A program made the position numbers and the translations under genes. A stretch of DNA of 64,000 bases from positions 1 to 64,000 of the IMG/VR virus record IMGVR_UViG_2529292906_000009. One strand, given 5' to 3'. Positions 713 to 55,784 of the stretch are shown here, one piece after another. Positions within the stretch are counted from its first letter, which is position 1. Each line of letters starts with the position of its first letter. The notes beneath the pieces were generated by a model. The model was given only the letters and a program-made list of their open reading frames with translations. It had not been told where the DNA came from and did not search any database. This DNA comes from a virus. Taxonomy: Duplodnaviria > Heunggongvirae > Uroviricota > Caudoviricetes.

Positions 713-1537
713 ATGATAAATTATGTCTACGGCGAACAACTGTACCAGGAGTTCGTCAGCTTCAGGGATCTCTTTCTAAAAAAAGCTGTTGCACGCGCCC
801 AACACGTTGATGCCGCCAGCGACGGTCGTCCTGTTCGCCCGGTTGTCGTCCTGCCGTTCAAAGAAACGGACAGCATTCAGGCTGAAATTGATAAATGGAC
901 TTTAATGGCGCGAGAACTGGAACAGTACCCAGACCTCAATATCCCAAAGACTATTTTATATCCAGTGCCTAACATCCTTCGCGGTGTGCGTAAGGTTACA
1001 ACTTATCAGACAGAAGCTGTGAACAGCGTCAACATGACCGCTGGCCGCATTATTCATCTGATTGATAAGGACATTCGCATCCAGAAAAGCGCGGGGATCA
1101 ATGAGCACAGTGCGAAATACATAGAGAACCTGGAAGCAACAAAAGAGCTAATGAAGCAGTACCCGGAGGATGAAAAATTCCGTATGCGTGTACACGGCTT
1201 TAGCGAAACAATGCTGCGCGTCCATTACATTTCCAGTAGCCCTAACTACAATGATGGTAAATCAGTTAGTTACCATGTGCCGCTGTGTGGTGTGTTTATC
1301 TGCGATGAAACTCTCCGTGATGGAATCATCATCAACGGTGAATTCGAAAAAGCAAAATTTAGCCTTTATGACTCTATAGAACCGATCATCTGCGACCGCT
1401 GGCCGCAGGCAAAAATATATCGCCTGGCAGATATTGAAAATGTAAAAAACAAATTGCCATCACTCGCGAAGAGAAAAAGGTCAAATCAGCCGCATCAGTT
1501 ACGCGCAGCCGTAAAACTAAGAAGGGGCAGCCAGTAA
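713..1537 (+). CDS. c1: C1 immunity repressor; 274-aa frame as read, probable frameshift in an A6 tract near the 3' end
   Basis: N-terminal ~245 aa recognised as P1 C1; many copies of its operator in the window; the alternative frame after 1445-1450 stays open to 1561 and gives 283 aa, the recalled C1 length. Confidence 0.75.
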   Translation: MINYVYGEQLYQEFVSFRDLFLKKAVARAQHVDAASDGRPVRPVVVLPFKETDSIQAEIDKWTLMARELEQYPDLNIPKTILYPVPNILRGVRKVTTYQTEAVNSVNMTAGRIIHLIDKDIRIQKSAGINEHSAKYIENLEATKELMKQYPEDEKFRMRVHGFSETMLRVHYISSSPNYNDGKSVSYHVPLCGVFICDETLRDGIIINGEFEKAKFSLYDSIEPIICDRWPQAKIYRLADIENVKNKLPSLAKRKRSNQPHQLRAAVKLRRGSQ

Positions 1538-9757: not shown

Positions 9758-9768
9758 TGGATTTGCCC

Positions 9769-10674
9769 CTATATTTCCAGACATCTGTTATCACTTAACC
9801 CATTACAAGCCCGCTGCCGCAGATATTCCCGTGGCGAGCGATAACCCAGCGCACTATGCGGATGCCATTCGTTATAATGCTCGAACGCCTCTGCAAGGTT
9901 CTTTGCTGCCGTTAACCCGTCTGGTTTGGGCATGATACTGATGTAGTCACGCTTTATCGTTTTCACGAAGCTCTCTGCTATTCCGTTACTCTCCGGACTC
10001 CGCACCGCCGTGTTCTTCGGTTCAAGTCCCAACATCCGGGCGAACTGGCGTGTTTCATTAGCCCGGTAGCATGAACCATTATCCGTCAGCCACTCCACTG
10101 GAGACGACGGAAGATCGTTGCCGAAGCGGCGTTCCACCGCTCCCAGCATGACGTCCTGTACTGTTTCACTGTTGAAGCCGCCGGTAGTCACCGCCCAGTG
10201 CAGTGCCTCACGATCACAGCAGTCCAGCGCGAACGTGACACGCAGTCTCTCTCCGTTATCACAGCAGAACTCGAACCCGTCAGAGCACCATCGCTGATTG
10301 CTTTCTTTCACGGCCACTCTGCCTGTATGTGCCCGTTTCGATGGCGGTACAGCAGGTTTTCGCTCAAGCAACAGCGCATTCTGGCGCATGATCCGGTAAA
10401 CACGTTTGGCATTGATCGCAGGCATACCATCAAGTTCTGCCTGTCTGCGAAGCAGCGCCCATACCCGACGATAACCATACGTGGGCAGCTCTCCGATAAC
10501 ATGGTGTATACGGAGAAGCACATCCGTATCATCAGTGTGACGACTGCGGCGGCTATCCATCCAGTCATCGGTTCGTCTGAGAATGACGTGCAACTGCGCA
10601 CGCGACACCCGGAGACAACGGCTGACTAAGCTTACTCCCCATCCCCGGGCAATAAGGGCGCGTGCGCTATCCAC
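9769..10674 (-). CDS. insD: IS2 transposase OrfB (301 aa)
   Basis: Sequence recognised as IS2 InsD (DDE integrase domain). Confidence 0.9.
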
Positions 10675-10997
10675 TTTTTTGCCCGTCCATATTCAACGGC
10701 TTCTTTGAGGAGTTCATTTTCCATCGTTTTCTTGCCGAGCAGGCGCTGGAGTTCTTTAATCTGCTTCATGGCGGCAACAAGTTCAGAGGCAGGAACAACC
10801 TGTTCTCCGGCGGCGACAGCGGTAAGACTTCCTTCCTGGTATTGCTTACGCCAGAGAAATAACTGGCTGGCTGCTACACCATGTTGCCGGGCAACGAGAG
10901 AGACCGTCATCCCCGGTTCAAAGCTCTGCTGAACAATTGCGATCTTTTCCTGTGTGGTACGCCGTCTGCGTTTCTCCGGCCCTAAGACATCAATCAT
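10632..10997 (-). CDS. insC: IS2 OrfA (121 aa, HTH)
   Basis: [18 protein letters not shown]... recognised as IS2 InsC; overlaps insD in the -1 frame as expected for programmed frameshifting. Confidence 0.85.
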
Positions 10998-11095
10998 CTG
11001 TTCTCCAATGACTAGTCTAAAAACTAGTATTAAGACTATCACTTATTTAAGTGATACTGGTTGTCTGGAGATTCAGGGGGCCAGTCTAGCAACTC

Positions 11096-19823: not shown

Positions 19824-19889
19824 ATTGCTCTAATAAAAAACGTGATGAGTGTACATCACGTTTTAAAAATATGGAATTATTAGAGCAAT
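19824..19889. promoter_or_regulatory. pair of C1 operators in inverted orientation (19824-19840 and 19873-19889) flanking palindrome CGTGATGAGTGTACATCACG
   Basis: attgctctaataaaaaa and ggaattattagagcaat read directly; the palindrome sits exactly between them. Confidence 0.55.
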
Positions 19890-50319: not shown

Positions 50320-51330
50320 CTATAAACTCTGAACAAGACGTTCAATTGCTGCACCATATCTTTCTAATGGTTCATTATTGATTTGTGGCTCAGTGTCATG
50401 GATCTGATATCTGCCGGGTTTTATATCAAATAGAGGTCTTCCTAGATGGGAAGATACTATAGCTACGGAATGGTTATCTGGCACAGTAAACGTTTTTAAA
50501 TTTCCGCCTTGGAACGCTGTTGGTTTATTCGTCCGCAGATTTTCAGCTCTATCCCTGATTTCGTCGAACATTGCCGAAAACGCTTTACTTGCTCGTTTGT
50601 CATACTCTGTCGAACGATTAAAAACTAGAGAATGAATGACAGGAACCGCTAGACCAAACTGTTGACACCGATCGTAAAAGTTAACAGAACGATAATCGTT
50701 TTGTACTCCAACGCCATAAACCAACTGGCTTAGGTTATCCACTGCTCGAGCCGAAGAACCATCACTTGAGCAAGGTATTATAATTGCATTTGCTGCTATC
50801 AGTGATAGTTCGGTATAGGCAGAGAAACTGGGGTTGCAATCAATAAAGCAAATGGTTTCTTCGATACCTTGTTGTTGTGCACATGCAACAAGCAAATCTC
50901 GTAGCCACAGGTGGATGCTTTTCCATGAGTCAACTGGTAAGTTTACGCTGCTTAACTGATTGATTACTTGCGCCTGAACTTCCAGGCTTGGGTCGCCTGC
51001 AATCAAAAATACATTGTCAGGGACATGCCCGTTAATTTCAGAGACATGAATTAAGAAACTTGTTTCTGAACCGGTAAGCATGTGGGGGCTGCGAGTTCTT
51101 CTGTCAAAGTACCCACCGACAGTTTTTCGTTGTTGAATTAAGCTCGCGAGGTTAGCAGCACCAGTACCGTTACCGCCGAGCAATATTTCAGATAAGTTAG
51201 CCTGCGGACACATATCTGCAAAAATAATACGCTTTTCTGGATTTTGCCTTGCGTATTCACAGGCCATAGCGAAAGATAAGTAGGTCTTTCCTACGCCACC
51301 TTTATTATTCCAAATAGCATACGATTTCAT
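50320..51330 (-). CDS. orphan ParA/MinD-family ATPase with C-terminal extension
   Basis: Deviant Walker A AIWNNKGGVGKT; no adjacent ParB-like gene. Confidence 0.6.
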   Translation of the reverse strand: MKSYAIWNNKGGVGKTYLSFAMACEYARQNPEKRIIFADMCPQANLSEILLGGNGTGAANLASLIQQRKTVGGYFDRRTRSPHMLTGSETSFLIHVSEINGHVPDNVFLIAGDPSLEVQAQVINQLSSVNLPVDSWKSIHLWLRDLLVACAQQQGIEETICFIDCNPSFSAYTELSLIAANAIIIPCSSDGSSARAVDNLSQLVYGVGVQNDYRSVNFYDRCQQFGLAVPVIHSLVFNRSTEYDKRASKAFSAMFDEIRDRAENLRTNKPTAFQGGNLKTFTVPDNHSVAIVSSHLGRPLFDIKPGRYQIHDTEPQINNEPLERYGAAIERLVQSL

Positions 51331-51638
51331 GGTATCCCCGGCGTTATCTGCTGTTTGTGTGCCAGCATAAGTCATTATGCATCTCCATTACTATCCATGA
51401 ATTGAGTCAAAAAATATGTAAAAGTAGCAATGTATCACTCTTTTACTCATTATAAACGTTACAAGTTGTGATGGTTAGCTGTGTTTTTATCAGTACAAGT
51501 TTTGATCTGGCTTTGGGTTTTTATATATGGATATGTCTCAAAGATGCCCTGCAAAAGCGATCGCTAACTGTAAAAAATCAGATTGCATCTCCGACCTCAA
51601 ACTGAAAACGCCAGGTGACTCCAGATTAGAGCAATCTA

Positions 51639-51908
51639 TCACCCTCTGAATCCTGCCGGTATACCCCATTGTTCGTTATCTTTATTTTTGGCTAAAACCG
51701 CATTAAGAGCTTCGTTTACCGTCATGCAATGCGGCAGATTATCGAAGTTTGATATCCCGCCAATATCAGGAGAACGCTTGTCCTTCAGGTAAGCATATTT
51801 CCGCGCTGCCGCCTCTACTTTCTGCTTGAACTCATGTTTTTGAGCGCGTTTTTTGGATAACCGCAGATTGTCAGCCTTTGCTTTTGCCTCAGCGATCCAT
51901 GAAGTCAA
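51639..51908 (-). CDS. small hypothetical protein
   Basis: 89-aa ORF downstream of the repL-like gene. Confidence 0.4.
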   Translation of the reverse strand: MTSWIAEAKAKADNLRLSKKRAQKHEFKQKVEAAARKYAYLKDKRSPDIGGISNFDNLPHCMTVNEALNAVLAKNKDNEQWGIPAGFRG

Positions 51909-52483
51909 TTTTTTGAGTCTGGTCGTTCCGGCACCGCCGGAAACTGATCTTTTTGTTTTTTAACTTGTGACTTCTTATTCTTTATTGCCACGTCATCCTG
52001 ACAGGGGGAGGGGGTATCATTTTGACATGGGGGTGTGGATAAAAAATTAAATAAAGCCAATGTCTTAGCGAGAACAGCTTTAACCTTGGTTGCCGCTGAA
52101 GAGATCTTTAATTTGCTTTCAATCAGCGCATTTTTGGCTTGTTGTGCGAAGGCCAAAAAGGATGGTGTAAACCGGTACAGGTTAGCGCGACGTTCACGGT
52201 GATCGCCGATAACAATCTCTACAGACAGGATTCCTTTGTTTACAGCTTCACGGAATGCACGAACGACGGTTGATTGGCTATAACCAGTTTCTGCCGCGAT
52301 CAGGCGGTGAGGCTTGTGAATGAAGTATTCACTGGTTGTTGCCGCGAGATTTGCACATTGCGACAGGATATGCCAGGCGCTACGGGATAGACCGGAGTGT
52401 GTTACAAAGCAGGCCAATTCATAGCCAGAAAAAGTAAAATCGCTCATCGTTATACAGCTCAGGAAAGTGACTTTAGCCAGCAT
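51905..52483 (-). CDS. HTH protein, RepL-like (lytic replicon position)
   Basis: HTH YSQSTVVRAFREAVNKGIL; sits downstream of kilA as P1 repL does, but is shorter than recalled RepL. Confidence 0.4.
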   Translation of the reverse strand: MLAKVTFLSCITMSDFTFSGYELACFVTHSGLSRSAWHILSQCANLAATTSEYFIHKPHRLIAAETGYSQSTVVRAFREAVNKGILSVEIVIGDHRERRANLYRFTPSFLAFAQQAKNALIESKLKISSAATKVKAVLAKTLALFNFLSTPPCQNDTPSPCQDDVAIKNKKSQVKKQKDQFPAVPERPDSKN

Positions 52484-52512: not shown

Positions 52513-53075
52513 TTAGCGCGTTGCCGCGACAGGTACCAGCACACCAGCATCAAGCAATCGCTTCATCAGCCACTGCTGACCCTTGCCGGTTATACGAGTC
52601 GTGAAAGAAATCCTGCTTCCATTGCTTGTATCGATCACGGTTTCTTTAAGGGTGAAATACCCACGGGATATGTATTCTTGTTTGGGGACGTTCCTGCGTT
52701 CACCGGTTGCGATCAGAATTCCGTTATCACGCAACCAGGTGAAGAGATAGTTTTGGCCCAGGCCGAGCACTTTGGCATAGTTGCCGATTAGAACCCCGCT
52801 GGCGGTAGCAACGCGTTCGGCGAATTCGACTTTAGGTGCATCCATAAGCATTTTTTGCTCCAGCCGTTGCTTTTGCTCTGCCAGGTCGGCAGCCAAACGG
52901 AGAGCTTCAGGGAGACTCTGCGGAATAGCAGGTTGTAATCTTCCGGCTCGATAGTCGATAAATGTCTGGTTTACCTTCAGCCGAAACGCGGGAGAAATCC
53001 AGCCTGCGTACTCCACAGCGAGCAATTCATGGGCAAAAGTGCCGCCGCCACGGCCTTCGAACGAAACTATGCAAT
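52513..53075 (-). pseudogene. kilA: kilA C-terminal fragment (ANT/KilA-C domain), separated from its N-terminus by IS200
   Basis: KilA-N tail ...GGGTFAHELLAVEYAGWISPAF plus ANT-C-like domain; 5' end abuts the IS200-like element. Confidence 0.55.
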
Positions 53076-53079
53076 TCTG

Positions 53080-53800
53080 CATAGTTTCTTTTTGTGCACA
53101 GAAAACCCCCAGCTAGGCTGGGGGTTCCGGAAAGCTTTCAGCTTTGAGCCAGTTATTAAAACCCCTTTTGATTTGTTAAAACACCTTGCGGTCTGGCAAC
53201 TGCAAGTGTCAAACAAGAAATCAAAAGGGGGTCCCAATGGGGAACGAAAAGAGCTTAGCGCACACCCGATGGAACTGTAAATATCACATAGTTTTTGCGC
53301 CAAAATACCGAAGACAAGTGTTCTACAGAGAGAAACGTAGAGCAATAGGCAGTATTTTGAGAAAGCTGTGCGAGTGGAAAAGCGTACGGATTCTTGAAGC
53401 TGAATGCTGTGCAGATCATATCCATATGCTTGTGGAGATCCCGCCCAAAATGAGCGTATCCGGCTTTATGGGATATCTGAAAGGGAAAAGCAGTCTGATG
53501 CTTTACGAGCAGTTTGGTGATTTGAAATTCAAATACAGGAACAGGGAGTTCTGGTGCAGAGGGTACTACGTCGATACGGTGGGTAAGAACACGGCGAAGA
53601 TACAGGATTACATAAAGCACCAGCTTGAAGAGGATAAAATGGGAGAGCAGTTATCGATTCCCTATCCGGGCAGCCCGTTTACGGGCCGTAAGTAACGAAG
53701 TTGGATGCAAATGTCAGATCGTGTGCGCCTGTTAGGGCGCGGCTGGTAAGAGAGCCTTATAGGCGCATTTGAAAAACCTCCGGCTATGCCGGAGGATATT
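53080..53800 (+). mobile_element. IS200-like element (IS200/IS605 family), boundaries approximate
   Basis: Y1 transposase gene preceded by a perfect hairpin aacccccagc-tagg-ctgggggtt; about 709 bp would restore the kilA frame. Confidence 0.7.
53237..53695 (+). CDS. tnpA: IS200 transposase TnpA (Y1 HuH, 152 aa)
   Basis: MGNEKSLAHTRWNCKYHIVFAPKYRR... recognised as IS200-type TnpA with HxH and catalytic Tyr region. Confidence 0.85.
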   Translation: MGNEKSLAHTRWNCKYHIVFAPKYRRQVFYREKRRAIGSILRKLCEWKSVRILEAECCADHIHMLVEIPPKMSVSGFMGYLKGKSSLMLYEQFGDLKFKYRNREFWCRGYYVDTVGKNTAKIQDYIKHQLEEDKMGEQLSIPYPGSPFTGRK

Positions 53801-53804
53801 TATT

Positions 53805-54025
53805 TCAAGCTCTTCGATGAGCTGTTTTGCTGACAGCGTTCTTAGCCATTGAGCTGGCGCTTTATGGGCACCGAGTCCGCTCGCTCTGTGTAGAGCATTA
53901 AGGTTGTAACGGCCAGCGCGGTCGGTCGTAATTTCAACACCACAAATAACGGGCAGAGTGGTTGAAGGATCGACATTTTGATGAAGGTTTGATATATTCA
54001 TATCCGCATTGAATGTTTGTTGCAT
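53805..54025 (-). pseudogene. kilA: kilA N-terminal fragment (KilA-N domain)
   Basis: KilA-N motifs GRYNLNALHRASGLG...AQWLR...LIEELE; ORF then reads into IS200 sequence. Confidence 0.55.
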
Positions 54026-54094: not shown

Positions 54095-54111
54095 AAATTT
54101 ATTAGAGCAAA
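54095..54111 (-). promoter_or_regulatory. C1 operator (16/17) upstream of kilA
   Basis: aaatttattagagcaaa read directly. Confidence 0.6.
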
Positions 54112-54154
54112 TTTTTCTGACTCGATCCAGATCGGGTTGGACGATCTGCTCAGA

Positions 54155-54184
54155 AACCTGCCAGTTTGCTGGCAGGTTTTTTTC
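54155..54184. terminator. hairpin terminator (stronger T-run on + strand)
   Basis: aacctgccag-tttg-ctggcaggtt followed by TTTTTTTCTTTT. Confidence 0.5.
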
Positions 54185-54189
54185 TTTTG

Positions 54190-55236
54190 TTAACCTATTG
54201 CTACTGGTTTTAACAAACCAGCATCAAGTAGCTTGCGAGTTAACCACTGCTGGCCTTTACCCGTTAATTGGGGCGTCAGCCGTATCTGGTAGCCATTTTC
54301 ATCATCCAGCACCACTTCTTTCACCGTGAAATACCCGGCGTTGATGTACTGTTGGCGCGGTACGTTTTTGCGCGCACCAAAAGCCATGAGAATGCCGTTC
54401 TGGCGCAACCATGAGAAAAGGGCGTTTTGCTTAAGTCCAACGACCTTTGCAAAGTTCCCGATCAGGATTCCATTAGCCACTGATACCCGGTCGGCAAAAT
54501 CGACTTTAGGGGCTGCGGCCACCAGCTGTTGTTCCAGCTGCATTTTCTGTTCTGCCAACTCGGCAGCCAGGCGTAGAGCTTCTGGTAATGTTTGGGGGAT
54601 CGATGGGGCAGGGGAGTTTGCCTGCTGCAATTCTTCCAGTTTGTCGATCAGCGAACGGCGGACCGCTTTCGATTCGCGAGCAGCAACGCGCAGGGCTTGT
54701 TTGTATGTCATTACTATAACTACCTGATCCGCTCCACCTTTTTTCTTATCCATAGGGGTTACGAAGATTTCGTAACCCTCCCCATCAAGCTCATCCTTAA
54801 CTCTGGCAATGAAATCATTGTTGCGAACTGGTTTTTCGCTACATAATTTCCGTGCCTCATTGACCATCTTTAACAGTGTCAGGCTGTCGATTGTGTCTCC
54901 GGTGTTGGGGATAATATTCACGGCTGGTGCTGGCGTAGCTGACGTAACAGGTGCTGGTTTTTCAACATTCAAATTATTACCGGTCATTCTATGTGCCTCC
55001 TTTCTCATTTCTGCTGCCACTGTTGCGTAACGTAGACGTCCTTGTTCAATCAAATAATCCCTGATCTCGGCTATCAGTAGCCTGTTGATCACAGCCTTAT
55101 CTGTTCGGGTATAAAAACGCCTGGTTATCATGAAATAGTTAGCAATTGCGCCGGGGATCTCCCGTGTCGGCATACAGGCAGTATGCAAAGCGATCGCTTC
55201 GGCTATTTCATTACGGGTGACGAGAGGTTTTTTCAT
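54190..55236 (-). CDS. ant1: antirepressor (ANT C-terminal domain)
   Basis: C-terminal half shares the ANT/KilA-C domain with the kilA C-fragment; preceded by the icd-like ORF. Confidence 0.65.
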   Translation of the reverse strand: MKKPLVTRNEIAEAIALHTACMPTREIPGAIANYFMITRRFYTRTDKAVINRLLIAEIRDYLIEQGRLRYATVAAEMRKEAHRMTGNNLNVEKPAPVTSATPAPAVNIIPNTGDTIDSLTLLKMVNEARKLCSEKPVRNNDFIARVKDELDGEGYEIFVTPMDKKKGGADQVVIVMTYKQALRVAARESKAVRRSLIDKLEELQQANSPAPSIPQTLPEALRLAAELAEQKMQLEQQLVAAAPKVDFADRVSVANGILIGNFAKVVGLKQNALFSWLRQNGILMAFGARKNVPRQQYINAGYFTVKEVVLDDENGYQIRLTPQLTGKGQQWLTRKLLDAGLLKPVAIG

Positions 55237-55479: not shown

Positions 55480-55760
55480 CAACCTGCGACCCGCTGTCAA
55501 ACAGGTGGCAGGACGTGACAGGGTTGACAGACTGGCACTTACGAAACCAGCAGGCCGAAGCCTCCCCATCACGCCCCACCATAATTCGGGCGTAACGTGG
55601 TTTTACGGACACAAAAATACCGCAATATCGGAAATGTGCGGTTGTCCGCGTAAGTATTCAGGCTGTCAAACCTGGTCGCAGAATTTGCTGCGACGGCGGA
55701 ACTATAAGCCTGAACGATTAAAAGGTCAATATGATGCGAAAAGATAGCATTCGTGACTTA
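55480..55760 (-). ncRNA. c4: region expected to encode the c4 antisense RNA and its target repeats (boundaries not resolved)
   Basis: Lies between the operator and icd as in P1 immI; repeated TTGACAG-type motifs and their complements. Confidence 0.3.
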
Positions 55761-55767
55761 AAAATAC

Positions 55768-55784
55768 AAATTTATTAGAGCATT
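55768..55784 (-). promoter_or_regulatory. C1 operator (16/17) upstream of the immI operon
   Basis: aaatttattagagcatt read directly. Confidence 0.6.

Follow-up and report, generated by a model that had tools for sequence, protein, structure and literature searches.

When the kilA gene of a P1-like phage-plasmid is found in two pieces, it has to be asked what the intervening DNA is, how it came to lie at that particular nucleotide, and whether it separates the neighboring repL gene from its promoter. The question arises here for a 64,000-nucleotide stretch of viral DNA (positions 1 to 64,000 of IMG/VR record IMGVR_UViG_2529292906_000009; hereafter, the window). As the preliminary description of this locus held, kilA and repL of P1 form one C1-controlled operon that contains the lytic origin (P1 annotation; PMC9948254), both genes being transcribed from the C1-repressed promoter P53 with oriL inside repL. 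The kilA gene is dispensable but toxic, and lytic replication depends on repL being transcribed (PMC9948254). The explanation favored in the present analysis, to which a probability of roughly 0.8 is assigned, is that IS200C has inserted into kilA of a P1-like (Punavirus) phage-plasmid via a hairpin target, probably cutting the transcription that runs from P53 to repL.

The immI–P53–kilA–repL region of P1 is found on the minus strand of the window, in the order icd-ant1/2, ant terminator, P53 with its operator Op53, kilA and repL (Table 1). The likeness to the P1 lytic replicon is close: the same genes stand in the same order at about 99% nucleotide identity, Op53 is identical, and P53, P53as and the predicted PrepL are all present. 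Unlike in P1, kilA is interrupted and repL is frameshifted in an A-run of an AT2-like element, while downstream a ParA-like gene takes the place of rlfA/rlfB, the P1 homology stopping inside Op55. Identity of the stretch to P1, P7 and hundreds of P1-like plasmids amounts to 98.6-99.8%, with the exception of one block that is absent from those. Across P1-like phage-plasmids, kilA otherwise ranks with the most highly conserved genes (PMC9603915).

Table 1. Positions of the kilA–repL locus features, the inserted element and related features in the window.
Feature	Position	Strand	Description
c1	713-1537		private A7-to-A6 frameshift at 1444-1449
repL	51639..52483	-	-1 frameshift; ORF ends at 51905 (alignment with P1 and comparison record L002)
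AT2-like A/T-rich stretch	51946..51987	-	13-mer-like GATCTTTTTGTTT; contains the shortened T6 run, 51956-51961
kilA 3' fragment	52513..53093	-	remainder of KilA-N, and ANT/KilAC domain (P1 alignment)
PrepL, predicted internal promoter	52715..52743	-	identical to the feature annotated in P1; retained downstream of the IS
Target hairpin	53063..53093	+	GAAACTATGCA-ATTC-TGCATAGTTTC + TTTTT, on the kilA antisense strand, directly 5' of the IS left end
IS200C	53094..53805	+	709-bp core 53094-53802, plus TTT; left end 53094, right end 53802/53805
Left-end regulatory region	53104..53227	+	terminator hairpin at about 53104-53126, then tnpA 5'UTR stem-loop/art200 (STnc490)
tnpA	53237..53695	+	152-aa Y1/HUH transposase, intact; antiparallel to kilA
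Right-end hairpin	53777..53795	.	minus strand (kilA sense): CCUCCGGCAUAGCCGGAGG then UUUUU; intrinsic-terminator look-alike
kilA 5' fragment	53806..54025	-	220 nt, codons 1-73 plus 1 nt (P1 alignment)
P53as (PaskilA) antisense promoter	53970..53998	+	in the 5' end of kilA; identical to P1 annotation; promoter scan 10/12
P53 (PkilA) and Op53	54095..54129	-	P53 54101-54129, overlapping C1 operator Op53 54095-54111
ant1	54190-55236	-	part of icd-ant1/2

In the alignment with P1, this block corresponds to 712 bp of extra DNA (53094-53805) that cut kilA within codon 74. A single Pfam KilA-N model is divided by the cut, its positions 5-54 being matched in the 5' fragment and 69-106 in the 3' fragment, where the ANT/KilAC domain is also recognized (Pfam, 112.5 bits). 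The preliminary description had reported KilA-N and KilA-C/ANT fragments on the same strand with an IS200-like insert between them, and the split domain model and the P1 breakpoints bear this out; its strands were right and its positions nearly so, apart from the end of the 3' fragment, which was placed at 53075, 18 nt short of the actual 53093. The continuous 266-aa kilA ORF of P1 is not present in the window, and KilA-N and ANT are united in one polypeptide only by in-silico excision of the insert. Joining 54025-53806 to 53093-52513 yields a 266-aa product of which 265 residues agree with P1 KilA, confirming the expectation that removal of the element restores the frame. In fact, removal of the full 712 bp gives P1 kilA exactly, whereas removal of the 709-bp core alone leaves one surplus in-frame AAA codon. 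The uninterrupted kilA genes with which comparison had been proposed place the breaks in homology at the ends of the insert, at 53093/53094 and 53802-53805 for annotated P1 and at the same point for the close plasmid relative pEC21Z048-103K. As it stands, the 5' fragment reads into the element as far as a stop at 53732, forming a 97-aa chimeric ORF of 73 native and 24 junction or IS residues.

The split is real and chance is ruled out, because over 2 kb the flanks match P1 at about 99% identity and the core of the insert agrees at 709 of 709 positions with two E. coli chromosomal copies. That the fragments are instead two separate genes, one for a small KilA-N protein and one for an ANT protein, a refutation raised at the outset and one to which the Pfam match of each ORF lends some color, or that the insert is an assembly artifact, is exceedingly improbable and in the former case effectively excluded, given that the KilA-N model itself is shared out over both fragments, that the spliced product is so nearly P1 KilA, that in six plasmids both halves are annotated by RefSeq as parts of a pseudogene, that the same junction occurs in independent assemblies, and that the site fits the IS200C target rule described below.

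The insert is an intact IS200C, of the IS200 group of the IS200/IS605 family, with a core that runs from GTGCACAG to GGAGGATATTTA. The size of about 709 bp first given for it was correct (709 bp in the core and 712 bp in excess of P1), and the defined IS200 termini whose possible lack had been raised are in place, both exact ends and both subterminal hairpins having been found. Its sole long ORF is tnpA, with no tnpB. The product matches the Pfam family Y1_Tnp (130.3 bits) and the NCBIfam equivalog transpos_IS200 (147.7 bits against a cut-off of 55), carries the HIH motif at residues 61-63 and a tyrosine at residue 125, and has the IS608 and ISDra2 transposases among its PDB relatives (2a6m, 2vhg, 2xm3); an identical protein is named 'IS200/IS605-like element IS200C family transposase' in RefSeq. 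Terminal inverted repeats are absent, the ends GTGCACAG and ATATTTATTT not being complementary, and the flanks, CTTTTT and CAAGCT, contain no target-site duplication. Both subterminal regions are highly structured: the left end matches Rfam STnc490 at 146.4 bits (gathering score 56) and its hairpin, which folds at -22.3 kcal/mol, is followed by UUUUCUGU in the kilA direction, while the right-end hairpin folds at -17.6 kcal/mol (z -4.9) and is matched by the terminator scan on both strands.

These features are shared to differing extents with elements that have been described before. Salmonella IS200 (hisD984::IS200) and Yersinia IS1541 likewise measure about 0.7 kb, contain a single Y1 transposase gene, carry the left-end terminator hairpin, the 5'UTR stem-loop and art200/STnc490, and cause polar insertions; at 707 bp, compared with 709-712 bp here, they differ from the window element, which is of the E. 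coli IS200C type. IS608 and ISDra2 have a homologous TnpA, also lack inverted repeats and target duplications, and have a left end that abuts a fixed short target. Their targets are TTAC or TTGAT, whereas here TTNTT is found after a hairpin, in an element without tnpB. By analogy with these two transposases, IS200C would move via a single-stranded circular intermediate.

The suggestion that IS200 might hint at a Salmonella host did not hold up. When the query includes the element, matches are found in 3293 of 5426 complete E. coli genomes, mostly in the chromosome, and the best matches of the backbone are E. coli plasmids. The core differs at 0-8 positions from 13 other copies on plasmids and E. 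coli chromosomes, and the IS200 copy of Salmonella houtenae is just 91.4% identical. Judged by these identities, the IS allele points to Escherichia, not to Salmonella. IS200 is, moreover, ubiquitous in the Enterobacteriaceae, with about three copies per E. coli genome (PMC4513863). The occurrence of identical copies at unrelated loci suggests recent mobility.

Elements of the IS200/IS605 family transpose in single-stranded form, and their integration takes place on the 3' side of a short target. The nature of that target was sought by aligning, in the tnpA orientation, the flanks of 14 IS200C copies at 11 distinct sites. In all 14 copies a stable hairpin and then a T-run ending in TTNTT immediately precede the left end, and TT or TTT follows the right end. 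All 11 sites have a hairpin at least as stable as -9.3 kcal/mol and five or more T in the last 9 nt, a threshold passed by only 0.5% of 4000 random window positions. The chromosomal copies lie at gene ends (dacB–cgtA, opgE–ompX and idi–lysS) and are therefore sited at intrinsic terminators; a survey has also found terminator-like sequences to be over-represented just upstream of IS200/IS605 elements (PMC13548323). The kilA target hairpin, at -14.8 kcal/mol, was itself found by the terminator scan. When the element was removed in silico, a scan of both strands under stricter criteria, derived from the observed sites, returned three candidate targets and no more: the kilA hairpin, the ant terminator and a site near 19831. 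The scan is partly circular, since its criteria were based in part on the two P1 sites. The kilA hairpin and the ant terminator are precisely the places that IS200C occupies in P1-like plasmids, and at the ant terminator copies are found in pETEC1701-unnamed3, E. albertii p2RM9973 and a plasmid of strain 405, at two slightly different nucleotides. Two PLSDB plasmids, initially candidates for the same insertion at 96% coverage, were rejected on this ground, their IS200C being at the ant terminator and not in kilA.

A path of arrival can thus be proposed in which the target of IS200C would be the T-rich pentamer TTNTT immediately after a hairpin that looks like a terminator, a mechanism modeled on IS608 and ISDra2. 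The look-alike on the antisense strand of kilA would then be a natural landing pad, and one that appears to have been struck more than once. The same position in kilA is occupied by IS200C, in the same orientation, in six E. coli plasmids from Taiwan and Egypt (p98228-contig_3, NZ_CP173465.1; strain 2020N21-110 plasmid unnamed3, NZ_JBQJRU010000004.1; and four more). As in the window, their tnpA is flanked by KilA-N and KilAC halves, there labeled pseudogenes, on backbones 99.2-99.3% identical over this 1.1-kb region; unlike in the window, repL is intact (281 codons), and one copy has TT, not TTT, at the right junction. The IS allele of these six differs from that of the window by 6 SNPs in the 709-bp core, the window allele being that of the chromosomal copies. 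The exact 97-aa chimeric ORF is also present on two other public contigs, one of which adds a third backbone, in a Logan assembly, bringing the insertion to at least three diverged backbones. The exact junction pattern had 0 matches in genome_contigs, IMG/VR and JGI metagenomes, and no record identical to the window was found in the phage, plasmid or E. coli collections compared.

On these sequences, the simplest reading of the recurrence is repeated independent insertion into a hotspot set by the target. Single ancestry of all kilA::IS200C copies was considered and rejected as the simplest reading, since the alleles differ at 6 sites and that of the window is chromosomal, though gene conversion could in principle account for the difference in allele. 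An appeal to selection, in which silencing of the toxic KilA and of RepL would help the plasmid to be maintained, is improbable, despite the lethality of expressed KilA, the cytotoxicity of RepL-driven replication in cis (PMC9948254) and the spread of the insertion over diverged backbones. Target specificity suffices, there being three good sites in the IS-free window of which the two near P53 are those occupied; insertions at the ant terminator leave the operon undisrupted; and the kilA insertion is found in just about 6 of 520 repL-bearing E. coli records. Selection is thus not needed to explain the recurrence.

Repeated insertion at a hairpin target accounts for the position of the element; what the insertion does to the operon is a separate matter. 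The C1 operator was said to be still present at 54095-54111, and it is, with 17 of 17 positions identical to the annotated P1 operator, while P53 differs by one substitution in the spacer. Of KilA, however, only the 73 native residues and the 24 from the junction and element would be left, and the protein is destroyed. Transcripts from P53 would meet the right-end hairpin and its U5 run about 230 nt past the kilA start codon, would continue, if at all, as some 650 nt of untranslated RNA antisense to tnpA, and would then encounter the bidirectional terminator hairpin of the left end. C1-controlled transcription would therefore probably fail to reach repL and the oriL within it, and replication from the lytic origin after induction should be reduced or lost. 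Strong polarity on repL is considered likely from the sequence because two terminator-like hairpins lie in the kilA direction and because IS200 is classically polar; according to PMC4513863, IS200 was discovered as a polar insertion and its left-end terminator is bidirectional and rho-independent.

Several observations nevertheless run against strong polarity, and a reading in which the insertion is nearly neutral, with repL fed by PrepL, by terminator read-through or by transcription borne by the element and the phage-plasmid still inducible, retains perhaps a minor share of the probability and is held to be rather unlikely. PrepL is kept downstream of the insert, although in the P1 annotation it has only the status of a predicted promoter. 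In the six plasmids that share the insertion, repL has remained intact and so may still be useful there. The kilA gene is non-essential, and CRISPRi, a polar method, barely lowered plating of P1vir, to 0.86 at kilA and to 0.71 at repL; the authors of that study themselves count repL among the known essential genes and take it to have escaped their screen (PMC10695390). Transcription of repL from within the element was dropped from consideration, the promoter scan having returned no outward promoter on the kilA-sense strand of the IS. Against near-neutrality there also stand the two strong hairpin and U-run structures in the path of P53 transcripts, the classical polarity of IS200 insertions (PMC4513863) and the fact that repL of the window is in any case frameshifted.

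This last feature complicates the interpretation of the locus. What had been termed a repL-like gene is indeed present, but it is P1 repL itself, and its -1 frameshift had been missed. One A has been lost from an A7 run (a T6 run on the plus strand, 51956-51961), and the predicted product has 192 aa, 176 native and 16 aberrant, compared with 281 aa, the other 89 codons lying in another frame. The frameshift is shared by none of 520 repL-bearing E. coli records, the best match, at 99.9%, differing by the gap alone; it is the sole coding-region indel in 24 kb relative to comparison record L006. The exact allele was found in none of the GTDB species representatives, and its pattern had 0 matches in genome_contigs, IMG/VR and JGI metagenomes. 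The run lies in an A/T-rich stretch that would correspond to AT2 as described in PMC9948254, where AT2, the proposed core of oriL, is reported with a 13-mer and is needed for RepL-driven replication; in the window the 13-mer GATCTTTTTGTTT is present and the run that adjoins it is one base shorter. If the frameshift is real, RepL would be inactivated, and perhaps oriL with it, independently of the insertion, and lytic replication would be compromised regardless of polarity.

A second frameshift of the same kind is carried by c1 and is shared by none of 701 c1-bearing records. Together the two are the only coding-region indels relative to close relatives over about 60 kb, all other indels being intergenic. 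Shortening of a homopolymer from seven to six bases is a classic long-read error, and both frameshifts could be sequencing errors of this type. For a systematic homopolymer error throughout the window there is no clear support, with 4 of 80 runs of at least six bases differing from relatives, yet both coding frameshifts are seven-to-six shortenings. The 20 seven-base runs that could be compared include 2 shortened ones and 1 lengthened one, and a single run out of 59 with six bases differs. A null c1 combined with an apparently intact late-gene activator and other phage genes should be lethal, and therefore either C1 can do without its basic C-terminal tail or the frameshifts are miscalled. 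The reality of the repL frameshift is, on balance, somewhat doubtful.

The same evidence bears on the alternative that survives best, namely that the window represents a decaying, plasmid-locked P1 derivative with two genuine frameshifts, the IS being one among several lesions by which the lytic program is disabled or tamed. This is regarded as a serious contender that falls a little short of even odds. It would account for two frameshifts that are private and stand alone among coding-region indels, and for a second insertion sequence, of the IS3 family, at 9758-11089. Loss of the lytic replicon is also documented among P1 derivatives: pJIE250-3 and other degraded P1-like plasmids have lost lytic replication and persist as plasmids (PMC6906374), although in pJIE250-3 the replicon is deleted, whereas in the window it is interrupted and frameshifted but otherwise present. 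Telling against decay are the homopolymer nature of both changes in a set of runs that also includes a lengthened one, the expected lethality of a genuine c1 null in the presence of intact lpa and late genes, and the intact appearance of the other phage genes that were checked. A more far-reaching proposal, which is thought unlikely, is that the antisense look-alike in kilA acts as a built-in landing pad for IS200C through which C1-controlled transcription of repL and oriL is lost recurrently and independently, converting an inducible phage-plasmid into a plain plasmid, and that the window copy, with its private repL and c1 frameshifts, has been caught part-way.

For the favored reading, insertion of IS200C into kilA at a hairpin target with probable interruption of P53–repL transcription, part of the picture is already known: the same kilA site is occupied in RefSeq plasmids in which the halves are labeled pseudogenes, and the event is a classical IS200-family insertion into an operon that is well known. 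It leaves the accepted view of P1 and of IS200 as it was. What is new is modest and comprises an independent occurrence with a different IS allele, an explicit target rule that explains the hotspot, and co-occurring, possibly artifactual frameshifts. The locus illustrates neatly, on a small scale, the choice of terminator-like hairpins by IS200C, which explains the repeated use of the same kilA nucleotide, and it cautions that recurrent insertions are not to be read as selection. In the Enterobacteriaceae, resistance genes are commonly carried by P1-like phage-plasmids, and the ability of such a phage-plasmid to go lytic and to transduce decides how it spreads. An insertion sequence situated between the only well-characterized promoter of the lytic replicon and repL is in this respect a simple sequence marker, possibly one of impaired induction.

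Within the kilA coding sequence, at window positions 53063-53093, lies a perfect hairpin with an 11-bp stem, followed on the antisense strand by T5; the structure could terminate antisense transcription running towards P53. The stem also includes the in-frame ATG (53082) that serves as the start of the 189-aa KilA-C open reading frame. IS200C also occupies a second site a short way upstream of P53: in two P1-like plasmids, L002 and L003, it is inserted at the terminator of ant1, which corresponds to window positions 54152-54186. The orientation is the same, and since the insertion points lie slightly apart, at two different nucleotides, this hairpin and T-run, like the kilA hairpin, has received IS200C on at least two occasions.

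In L005 (NZ_CP173465.1), an Egyptian plasmid that carries kilA::IS200C, an extra, identical IS200C is found at about 1500-2230, where it follows another hairpin and T-run and adjoins a DUF4760 gene; this points to intraplasmid or recent transposition. Only one further strong target of the IS200C type is predicted in the IS-free window sequence, at about 19831 on the minus strand, and it consists of a hairpin and TTTTTTATT. This site (region 19824-19889) is empty in the window and adjoins two C1-operator-like sequences.

Coordinates of the features (window positions unless a plasmid is named)
Feature	Position	Strand	Remarks
IS3-family insertion sequence, second IS of the window	9758-11089		
IS3-family transposase ORF	9769-10674	minus	rve and HTH_21 domains
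ParA-like ATPase gene	50320-51375	minus	
C4 antisense RNA	55501-55586		Rfam, 69.6 bits
a1/b1 targets of C4 antisense RNA	55655-55707		Rfam, 61.2 bits
C1 operator-like site	55768-55784		
IS200C at ant1 terminator	L002 3217-3939		NZ_CP122941.1
IS200C at ant1 terminator	L003 3214-3935		NZ_CP043272.1

The IS3-family element lies close to where a small hypothetical gene starts, and the matching site of the close plasmid relative pEC21Z048-103K is uninterrupted; a similar element, 95% identical, is present at another location in that plasmid. Downstream of repL (50320-51640), where P1 has rlfA/rlfB, the window instead contains a ParA-like ATPase gene, a layout that is shared by pEC21Z048-103K. Homology to P1 stops within operator Op55, of which ATTGCTCTAAT (51625-51635) is the sole remnant.

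The c1 repressor gene (713-1537) contains an A7-to-A6 frameshift in the run at 1444-1449, as a result of which C1 has 274 aa rather than the expected 283, with its final 39 residues changed. The protein scores 545.7 bits against the NCBIfam model phage_rep_C1, yet only model positions 1-258 of 283 are aligned. The frameshift is absent from all other carriers checked (0 of 701 E. coli records) and, because it is the same kind of change as the repL frameshift, may stem from a homopolymer sequencing error. An isrK match (48.4 bits) that overlaps the a1/b1 region falls below the cut-off of 50, and the immI control region as a whole (55501-55784) looks intact.
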